Shown: positions 37,101 through 40,100 of the stretch, one piece after another | Position numbering within the stretch: position 1 is the first letter of the stretch | Layout: every line of letters starts with the position of its first letter | Source of the DNA: Amphiscolops sp. MND2022 | Lineage: Eukaryota | Assembly: GCA_964187785.1 (NCBI GenBank) | Contig: OZ076409.1 | Location: forward strand, 25,298,001 to 25,362,000 | DNA: 64,000 nucleotides | Direction of reading: 5' to 3' | The notes under the pieces: generated by a model | The model's input: only the letters and a program-made list of their open reading frames with translations | The model's database searches: none | Told to the model about the DNA's origin: nothing | Position numbers and translations under genes: made by a program

Positions 37101-40100
37101 TGAAAACAATCATTGAAAAAAAATTACCTACCCCAGACAACCCCAAAAAAGCCCGGAAAAAATCATTGTTTTCAAAAGAAATTCTAAAAAATCGAACCGA
37201 ACAATTAAAGTACTGACGATTGCCGAGCCTACGAGCATATTGGAAGCAATTTATCTGCAGCCATCAAAATTGGCAAATTTTTTGAAAATCACCCCTTTCA
37301 ATTGGCACTGAGAAGATTATTAATTAATATCTGACAGTTTTATTACTGAAAAAGACACTCTTTTCTGCAAATTGCCTCTGGATCATCTCTGCGGGATAGA
37401 ACGTCTTCTTATCGTACAGCAGAGAGATAGAGAAGAAGGAAAACCGGTGATAGAGCATTACTCACTTGTTAAATTACAGCGACTGGTCTTTTTTTCTTCG
37501 GGTCTTTACCAGTCACAGACGCTGATTTTATATTTTTAGCATTCAGCTTTTTGTTCGGTGAAAGCAATCTGTTTGCCACATATATGCAATTAAGTGAATG
37601 TATTACTTCAATCGATTGAACACTTCAGACTGACCTAAACTACTCAACCACTAACCTTTTATTTGCTGCTGCCGTTCCTGAAATTGCATACGTACATCTT
37701 TCAAATTATTCAACTTTCTCTGTTTTTTCGAAACAGATGGCCGGCTTTTTTTAGATGGACTCTTTTTGGAGAATTTCCTGTTCGACATTGACACCAATTG
37801 TCCGATTGCCTCTGTTTTGGAATTTTTAGCAGTTGCAAGAGCTTCTGAACACTTTTTAGGATTTGAATTTTTACACCCACTCTCAGGACTTCATTACAAA
37901 TGCCAGGGCAATATTTGGTGACTAACTGGGATTTTAAATGCCTGTCCGTAACATCGTTAGCTTCCCAACCACTAACAAGAAAAGATCCAGTTGAAATAGT
38001 CAGGACAGAATGAGCGCACAAAGATGGTTGAATTATCATATCAGAGACATCAGTTATGTGATAGAAAACATTTTTCTCACAATGTAATTTTGGACCCTTC
38101 AATACCCAGCTGACGAAAGACTCGATCGTGAAAGTCATAGCAAACAATCTACTCGATGCAGCACCGCGTTTGGCTATCATGAACAATATGCTGCCGATGG
38201 GAGTTAGAGAAACATATGTCCCCGCCCTCTTCTACGTGACCATCAGTGAACCAACGTCCAACGCCAATAATTGCTGAGGAATGAGCGCCTTTGACATGAC
38301 TAGGTGCAGTGTAGAAGCTCAGTCCTGTCATATCTAATGCACTAGCAAAGGGTGTGGAGAAATCTTCAACTGGGTTTATTTTTTTTGTTTCTCTTGTGGC
38401 ATTATTATATTTGAATTTTCGGAAGATTGCAGCTAATTGGCGCTTATTGGTGCATTTTTGGACAGCTCGCAAAAATTCTTCATCAAATTTAAATAGACGC
38501 TGATTGCGGACAACAATTAATTGGTAAATCTAGACATCATTAAAAATATCTAAACTACTATTATGCGCCTCCTCTTTGATCGAATTCCAATCAAAGCAAT
38601 TAGTGCCATCTATTGTTGCAAGCGAATTCCAACCCAAATCTTTCATTCCCTCGCTGGAACTGCACAGTTGAAACAATGAATCCAAATCTGACATTGCTGA
38701 TCTGGAAGAGAATTATATCATTAATGTACCGAACAGATCATCTCATTTGAAGAATGTGCATCCTTCAAGGGGCCCGGTATGTTGACGCTCAAGATGTCAA
38801 GACCAACTTTTCTAAACCAATACTTGACTAATTTGCAATCGCACAAAATGAAGACGTGATATTGTGAATGAAATTATAATTTGTTAAACTTGATCACGCT
38901 TTTTCAGTTGTTTGTAAATTTTCGTCACTGCAAGTTCAATACTGAATGAAACTTTCATGCTGAGATTAAATTCAATCTTTCTTTTGTGAACCAATTTACA
39001 AAGTCAACGCTATCCAGCAACAATTGGTATTCCAGATATGATTGTATTATTAATGAAAGATTAAAGCAGAAAAAATAGTGTGCCCCGGAGGGGCCTATTT
39101 TTCGAGTCAATGGTCACACGCTTGTGTAATCACGGAACTCAGTGACATTTATTTAAAAAGTCAATCAATTCTGAAGAGGCTGATGAGTGAGGTCTTCTCA
39201 AATCGGAAATCGGATTATCTTAGACCGAAAACCAATATACGAAAAGCTAGTTATAGAAGTGAGCAGAAAAGCGCTGTAATAAAAGGTGTACCGATTGACA
39301 TTGAAGAGGTCCATATCAGGGAAATACTTTAGAATGAGTGTCCTGGGATTTATGTGAAACGTTTCGTTAAAGCGGATGGCAAGATTCTACAGACAGTGAA
39401 GCTGACCTTCCAGTCCGAGTTACAATGCAATTTCGGAGGGAATATTTATTGACTAACTTTACTACCAACCATATGAATTTGTCAAGAGAGGCATTAGAAT
39501 CATTCGTTGCTTCAACTGTCAAAAGTTTGGACTCCTTAGTGGAAACTGCAACTCAAAAACAGCCTGTAAACACTGTAGCGAAGAGAGTAAAATTGAAAAT
39601 TCTGCAAACAAAGAATCAGAAAGTAAGTGCATAAACTGTGAAAGGACACATGACGCTGATTCACTTGACTGTCCGATTTTCATTAAACAAAAGCAAGTGG
39701 TATACGACGCTCGAGGGCTTACTGTGGAAAATCTGAATGAATGTCACGATGGATTCTGAAGGAATATCATTCTTACAGATTAATATTTGCGGCTTGAGCA
39801 ACCATTGCAAACTTGCAATAGATGCGTATCTAGAAAAAACATAGACCAGACGTGGTTTTCTTGAATGAAACAAAAAGAAGTGCCTGAAAATGCCTTTTAC
39901 GAATTATACAGCCCTTAGTGTAGTACTTCAAACAAGATATCTGTAGGAGTTGCTTTATTATTTTGATACAATGTGGCGAATGCCCAAATAAATCCACTGG
40001 AGACTGAACACAACGATAATTTTGTAGCTGCAGCTAATATTCGTGGCCTGAAAATACTAACTACAACTGCCTATATAAAACCCGAGGAAAAAGGTGAACT

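Follow-up and report, generated by a model that had tools for sequence, protein, structure and literature searches.

The closest described systems, as given in the accessible parts of the papers cited here, are of several kinds. Orchid Ty3/Gypsy elements carry an ORF for an AlkB m6A RNA demethylase, proposed to act against host surveillance (PMC9289625). Fungal DNA transposons encode TET/JBP dioxygenases, VANDAL elements are known for anti-silencing, and SET domains are found on HarbingerS and MuDR elements (PMC12730594); in the accessible text of that source no retrotransposon with TET/JBP was found and JmjC is not mentioned. Extra ORFs of LTR elements include sense, env-like and antisense kinds (PMC8220671), the latter being described in Retand elements (PMC11963269). 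JmjC genes have been captured by a virus, LbFV, whose ORF11 and ORF13 are nested among insect orthologues and are proposed to alter host expression (PMC5381508). The accessible parts of PMC3145265, PMC12085086 and PMC6431247 contain no transposon-borne JmjC, and a search of the literature by title and abstract, outside Repbase Reports, subscription journals and supplements (e.g. the domain tables of PMC9289625), found no JmjC-bearing retrotransposon.

The window (the whole 64,000-nucleotide stretch of DNA analysed here) contains a true BEL/Pao LTR retrotransposon (26601–39022) with an antisense gene lying past the integrase and ahead of the 3′ LTR, as the first-pass annotation had proposed on both counts. 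The LTR pair (TG start, CA end, 2/243 positions differing) is bounded on either side by the target-site duplication ATTGG, and the BEL-specific domains DUF1759, Peptidase_A17 and DUF5641 are present in gag-PR-RT-RH-IN order (Table 1), although the plus-strand coding region is split into many frames. When joined, the flanks of the element form a host repeat, an uninterrupted copy of which lies at 59188–59763, so the whole LTR-to-LTR stretch arrived as one unit. The integrase frame stops at 37061 and 1.7 kb remain up to the 3′ LTR; the antisense gene, with its ATG at 38694 (minus strand) and 86 nt from the LTR, fills this gap without overlapping pol. Named relatives of the integrase are from arthropods (identity ≤44%), and the host is probably an invertebrate. 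A self-priming primer-binding site was considered but found no support, the longest complementary stretch being 7 nt and a spliced match being absent.

Table 1. Coordinates, in the window, of the BEL/Pao element, its antisense JmjC gene and candidate expression signals.
Feature	Position	Strand	Details
Target-site duplication, left copy	26596..26600		ATTGG (5 bp)
5′ LTR	26601..26843	+	243 bp, TG...CA, 2 mismatches against 3′ LTR
gag-protease-RT-RNase H-integrase region	26933..37061	+	DUF1759, Asp_protease_2, RVT_1, Peptidase_A17, Integrase_H2C2, DUF5641 (Pfam)
gag-protease-RT segment of 1677 bp, in tandem	27407..34217	+	about four copies, 97–99% identical
Probable second exon	37547..37582	-	YVAxRLLSP in common with L001; acceptor non-canonical in window copy
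Splice-donor-like site at apparent ORF end	37650..37655	-	consensus donor at same place in L001 (722)
JmjC gene piece 3	37654..37878	-	P0010 residues 274–348, 88% over 75 aa; C-terminal helices, basic tail
JmjC gene piece 2	37869..38213	-	P0010 residues 162–276, 95% over 115 aa; 2OG Lys position (non-Lys here), distal iron His, conserved GWE
JmjC gene piece 1	38206..38694	-	P0010 residues 1–163, 93% over 163 aa; ATG, stop at codon 55, 2OG-binding Thr, H-x-E iron ligands
Splice-acceptor-like pyrimidine tract ending CAG	38702..38712	-	8 nt ahead of ATG; putative 5′-UTR intron or trans-splice acceptor
3′ LTR	38780..39022	+	243 bp; short purine-rich tract just ahead
3′ LTR motifs resembling TATA (38878) and initiator (38851)	38851..38878	-	candidate antisense promoter; pattern match without statistics, 27 nt apart
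Target-site duplication, right copy	39023..39027		ATTGG (5 bp)

The gene was first described as a frame of about 330 codons with one stop and one frameshift, marked by the motif FTDGHVE and a second motif of 15 residues. Both motifs, the ATG, the stop (codon 55) and the frameshift were found again on the minus strand, and bridging of the two breaks (X at each) gives 327 residues. Alignment to P0010, a natural unbroken relative 88–95% identical to the window pieces, revealed a second frameshift near 37870 that had been missed, so the last ~50 residues of the frame as first read are off-frame; the real open part corresponds to 348 codons and ends at 37654. The first frameshift lies directly past HVEEGG and is also present in P0018 (97% identical and sharing the off-frame tail), be it a sister copy inserted elsewhere or this locus in a different individual, making an assembly error unlikely. 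The iron triad H-x-E...H is present in the window copy, while the 2-oxoglutarate (2OG) lysine, kept in 96/104 family rows, is replaced. Given this loss, the stop and the two frameshifts, the window copy is a pseudogene.

Sequence comparison with the relative L001 indicates that the gene is probably spliced. L001 contains a phase-compatible GT-AG intron (722–824), and its acceptor at 824 joins the frame to YVAYRLLSP, which sits exactly behind it; the window counterpart is YVANRLLSP, starting at 37582. Between 37582 and 37547, 8/12 residues are identical to L001, a modest match whose score was reached by 12/1000 shuffles, and this short piece is the part that could be supported of an earlier suggestion that coding extends toward 37400. 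Among the close members listed as reaching the donor region, 18/20 end in G, GK, GE or SK, as would result from reading through the donor in this phase (DNA is known for two members). The TTCCAG reported earlier as acceptor-like belongs to the tract of pyrimidines whose terminal CAG lies at 38702. Taken together, the donor-like ORF end, the L001 intron, this tract ahead of the ATG and the TATA/initiator pair in the LTR make a spliced antisense transcript starting in the 3′ LTR the likely model of the gene, under which P0010 would probably lack its true C-terminus.

The 327-residue frame matched 8 relatives among 563 candidates, and the clusters of these relatives include unbroken members (P0010, 348 aa; P0026/P0027, 351 aa). 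By profile search, the family numbers 155 representatives at E ≤0.001, of which 73 also reach 1e-10 and 19 reach 1e-30; with 155 relatives at the first threshold, the feature lies far beyond chance. Among the matches listed 121/150 are shorter than 250 aa, as expected from decaying mobile copies. In an alignment of 125 sequences (A4), chosen by coverage from the profile matches and close relatives, the positions T150 (84/98), H153 (88/96), E155 (96/103), K170 (96/104) and H229 (97/106) are conserved, and H, E/D, K and H are all present in 50/68 of the matches that cover them. A further conserved set is specific to the family: W148 (92/100), G158, S161 (95/103), Q223 and E245 (89/101). The tails are K/R-rich, with an RGRP-like motif in 11/52 members, mostly close ones; in the C-terminal tail of intact relatives we take RGRP to be an AT-hook/NLS-like motif. 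Over 224 codons, pS is 0.89 (synonymous sites saturated) and pN 0.24 between the window and L001, which argues for strong purifying selection on the antisense frame, the selection check suggested by the first-pass annotation. The family tree comprises family members only (quick method, without a cellular KDM outgroup). A context search of metagenome contigs gave one 1054-bp locus; no locus was found in the viral contigs searched with A2, P0105, P0187, P0121 and P0131, or in the prokaryote genomes searched.

Modelling of P0010 with 125 sequences (pLDDT 94.5, pTM 0.89) predicts a double-stranded beta-helix that matches JmjC enzymes, in agreement with the identity first proposed; a model made with 20 close sequences was set aside (pLDDT 33.9). 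Ranks 1–9 in Foldseek are PHF2/ceKDM7A (E 4e-8 to 3e-7), and VIA-align gives Z scores of 14.7 for ceKDM7A, 14.4 for PHF2 and 14.3 and 14.1 for KDM2A (242–247 residues, post-core helices included), at 8–13% identity to the structural matches. When the profile was compared with PDB sequences, only PHF8/PHF2/KDM7 were matched (7/7, then 9/9; best E 0.0033), with PHF8 T244, H247, D249, K264 and H319 in register with the family; T244 and K264 align with the 2OG-binding Thr and Lys. Single sequences and shallow profiles gave no relevant match in the PDB. In Atlas, too, P0010 falls with JmjC clusters, the highest score being 0.95. The Pfam JmjC model (PF02373) gave no match above its curated cut-off for P0010, and none in the window pieces, the read-through or the other intact relatives; 7/125 family members match it at E ≤0.1 (best 1.4e-5), and this JmjC family is mostly missed by Pfam. 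The gene is not a sense-strand membrane fusion glycoprotein of the env-like kind, being antisense and having a soluble JmjC fold. On the basis of the model, the protein is a JmjC oxygenase that appears closest to KDM2/7 by a small margin, although its pocket differs and no reader domain was seen, and is predicted from fold and residues to be a catalytic, stand-alone Fe(II)/2OG oxygenase with a basic tail.

KDM7 and PHF8 remove H3K9me or H3K27me; the KDM2/7 enzymes are not known to act on trimethylation, the form in which animal TEs are usually marked, and this counts against an anti-silencing role. What the family has in common with KDM2/KDM7 (PHF8, KDM7A, PHF2, KDM2A, ceKDM7A) is the double-stranded beta-helix with the helices that follow it, and T, H-x-(D/E), K and H in register. 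It differs in overall sequence (10–13% identity), in a Glu that replaces the Asp ligand and in the non-aromatic equivalents of F250, Y234 and Y257. According to the residue roles given for PHF8 (cofactor, iron, methyl-lysine pocket; accessible part of PMC9516565), these are pocket/cofactor aromatics, and they are not kept (F250 to T/E/I, Y234 to D/A/S/N, Y257 to S/A/T in 98/104 rows; sequence alignment only). P0010 differs further in being retrotransposon-borne and in having no match to Pfam JmjC; no PHD, chromo, zinc-finger or CXXC reader domain was found in its 348-aa product, the probable downstream exon being only partly readable. With its altered pocket and no reader domain, the protein is not to be filed as a member of KDM2/7, and because these KDM7 features are missing, histone demethylation and anti-silencing are activities that we infer.

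The rebuilt pocket bears on the possibility of a non-histone substrate, in which the protein would be a hydroxylase or demethylase of the JMJD5/JMJD6/FIH type, with a host silencing factor or the Gag/Pol of the element itself as its target, or a TYW5-type RNA-modifying oxygenase. Loss of the Kme-pocket aromatics, with a family-specific conserved set instead, and the lack of a reader domain would suit such an enzyme, as would the Z scores close behind the best (JMJD5 13.4, JMJD6 13.2, FIH 13.1, TYW5 12.6), KDM2/7 being ahead of JMJD5/JMJD6/FIH by only about 1–1.5 Z, and the Atlas scores of 0.92–0.94 for JMJD4 and JmjC_2 clusters. However, KDM2/7 comes first by three methods, the PDB profile matches that group only and the basic tail fits a nuclear protein; we regard a non-histone substrate as possible, but rather unlikely. 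The nearest structural group itself points both ways, since KDM2A has H3K36 as its target (PDB title), and this mark is an active one. A KDM2-like protein that strips an active mark (H3K36me2 or H3K4me) at host defence loci or at the element, limiting damage or shutting small-RNA sources, would be in keeping with the structural tie between KDM2A and KDM7 (Z 14.1–14.3 versus 14.4–14.7) and with SET methyltransferases also being transposon-borne (accessible text of PMC12730594; window SET domain at 9504–10061), but sequence-profile matches are to PHF8/PHF2/KDM7 and not to KDM2A, and such dampening appears improbable.

Carriage of the gene by the BEL family as a whole is strongly indicated by co-location, for which JmjC and integrase contigs were equated by identical size in bp and which covered the 10/1555 integrase matches with members listed. 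The family's own integrase cluster (92–100% identical to the window pol) is found on five contigs, and 4/5 of their sizes (6636, 76990, 191894 and 885014) are among the 12 for close JmjC copies, against 0/54 for nine other BEL integrase clusters (51–72% identical; Fisher p 1.1e-5). The segment thus accompanies the family integrase in other copies, consistent with the accessory role first claimed for it. P0332, on the 76990 contig, extends from the integrase across the spacer as far as window position 37585, so that the DNA layout (spacer beside integrase) is shared by a sister copy; L001 stops short of the expected place of the integrase. The 180-residue tail of P0332 was rejected as a Pol extension: it has Trp at most window stop positions, the probable artefact of a gene call in which TGA=W, and both P0211 and P0331 stop at the same point as the window frame. 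A full-length ORF is found on only 1/12 contigs with close JmjC copies, which, with the frameshift in common with P0018, suggests that the gene is dispensable in cis. A contig size of 383120 is common to a close copy and the 33%-identical P0043 group, suggesting that several lineages share one genome.

The extent of co-location also bears on whether the gene could be a passenger, i.e. a JmjC gene of another mobile element or of the host that a single master BEL copy acquired recently, by capture or insertion, and that brings it no benefit. Co-location holds only for the close family, as the 59%-identical JmjC group (20 contigs) and more distant groups (12) have no size match among 83 other BEL-integrase contigs (54 + 29); most copies are broken, and the probable introns resemble those of a cellular gene. 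Set against this are the strong selection between the window lineage and L001 and the position of the gene, so close to the LTR and neatly filling the gap behind pol. Furthermore, the related groups, with 15 and 6 members, are likewise multi-copy and decayed, and so mobile rather than cellular in appearance, and no relative was returned as a named cellular protein in the search with family sequences. A passenger origin is on balance improbable.

From the predicted fold, the catalytic residues of the intact relatives, the purifying selection and the place of the gene inside an LTR-bounded unit, our main reading, with a probability of about 0.45, is that an accessory, probably spliced, antisense JmjC oxygenase erases a repressive methyl-lysine mark at copies of the element and so keeps them transcribed. 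The minus strand of the 3′ LTR would drive transcription of the gene, apart from the genomic RNA; because the latter is the other strand, it would retain the intron(s) of the JmjC gene, which could then survive each round of retrotransposition. The protein would enter the nucleus and remove H3K9me or H3K27me from chromatin at element copies, maintaining their transcription. It would presumably act in trans, so that many copies, that of the window included, could lose the gene. A bolder extension, which we put forward tentatively and think less likely to hold than to fail, is that of an old and diverse stand-alone JmjC family (at least 155 lineages below 50% identity) on retrotransposons, swapped between element families, that erases repressive histone methylation with a rebuilt pocket, possibly taking marks that KDM7 cannot, and whose antisense spliced layout lets the gene ride the RNA cycle.

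Elsewhere in the window, one SET domain (9504–10061) is above the Pfam cut-off (E 1.6e-11), while a second one is split and weak (E 0.15 and 0.033). The first-pass annotation had counted three TE-borne chromatin-enzyme domains, of which the JmjC and one SET stand. The tyrosine recombinase (YR) label given to the neighbouring elements was not confirmed: Pfam, PHROGs and PDB gave no match, and the two candidates are not similar to each other. Were the bolder extension above correct, the SET-bearing elements in the same window would mean that this host has writers as well as erasers of histone methylation on its mobile elements.

The JmjC gene of this BEL/Pao family is real and conserved, and apparently undescribed. 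In the accessible parts of the sources cited above, each known system resembles it in one respect and differs in others. LbFV is likewise a mobile genome with JmjC genes, but a large DNA virus (PMC5381508), and its structural match to the BEL/Pao JmjC is weak (E 3.2e-4). The antisense ORF of Retand has the same position and orientation, but lies in a plant Gypsy element and encodes a TRP28 domain, probably DNA-binding and not an enzyme (PMC11963269). TET/JBP, VANDAL and SET transposons carry factors directed at epigenetic marks that have passed between transposon lineages, the TET/JBP cases differing in being DNA transposons with DNA-methyl substrates (PMC12730594). The orchid Gypsy-AlkB elements are also LTR retrotransposons with an extra 2OG/Fe oxygenase ORF; there the fold is AlkB, the RNA substrate has been shown in vitro, the element is a plant Gypsy and the enzyme is near the host AlkB (PMC9289625), whereas here a deeply diverged JmjC of predicted activity is carried by BEL/Pao. 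The family adds a JmjC type with an unusual pocket that is largely missed by Pfam, and its natural intact members make enzymatic erasure of host silencing marks by retrotransposons directly testable. Few transposon counter-defences of a known enzyme class appear in the accessible literature (fungal DNA transposons with TET/JBP, orchid Gypsy with AlkB, oomycete transposons with SET), and a conserved JmjC in BEL/Pao would add to such cargo the class of histone demethylases and, as carrier, a superfamily found mostly in metazoans.

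The two LTRs of the BEL/Pao retrotransposon are only 0.8% apart, whereas its interior carries many frame breaks, one of them common to another copy, which suggests that this copy arose from an already defective template mobilised in trans. The tandem array of its gag-protease-RT region may be either a true amplification or an assembly artefact. A TGG-type primer-site-like stretch is found at the start of the leader and, no self-priming complement of more than 7 nt was found in the LTR. The element is inserted within a dispersed host repeat, the empty form of which is likewise present in the window.

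Beyond the probable second exon of the antisense JmjC gene, an additional donor-like site and the AATAAA downstream could, judged from sequence, mark a third exon and the end of the spliced minus-strand transcript proposed to start in the 3′ LTR. Among relatives of the encoded protein, P0105, P0121, P0126, P0131, P0166 and P0172 are distant family members (20–25% identity) that form a separate branch and are often full-length; searches of viral contigs with P0105, P0121 and P0131 gave no match.

Further features in the window
Feature	Position	Strand	Details
LINE	517-4178		PHD-finger ORF (E 7.4e-7) and endonuclease-RT ORF
TAG tract	4257-4358		shorter; behind LINE
SET ORF	within 5771-10061	minus	Pfam E 1.6e-11
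TAG tract	12098-12206		shorter
Split SET-like domain	within 14269-19904	plus	two ORFs, E 0.15 and 0.033
(GTA)817 tract	20585-23035		perfect, 2.45 kb
Host repeat flanking BEL	26086-26600; 39023-39101
Host repeat, further positions	59188-59763; 86-397; 23034-23166
BEL element	26601-39022
Primer-site-like stretch	26844-26875		TGG-type
gag-protease-RT copies	27407-34217		~4 tandem copies of 1677 bp, 97-99% identical
AATAAA	37344	minus	sole one on spacer minus strand
Donor-like site	37465	minus	consensus; spacer
Second LINE	39457-42633		decayed

The SET ORF lies upstream of a 766-aa zinc-finger-like ORF, in which inspection by eye revealed an R..H..Y pattern that we take to be tyrosine-recombinase-like; Pfam, PHROGs and PDB gave no support for a tyrosine recombinase identity. 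The second SET-like domain is probably split by an intron, and is followed by ORFs of 472 and 381 aa belonging to no known family, in a region containing coding repeats of 195, 111 and 69 bp. The PHD-finger ORF of the first LINE adds one more chromatin-reader domain carried by a mobile element.
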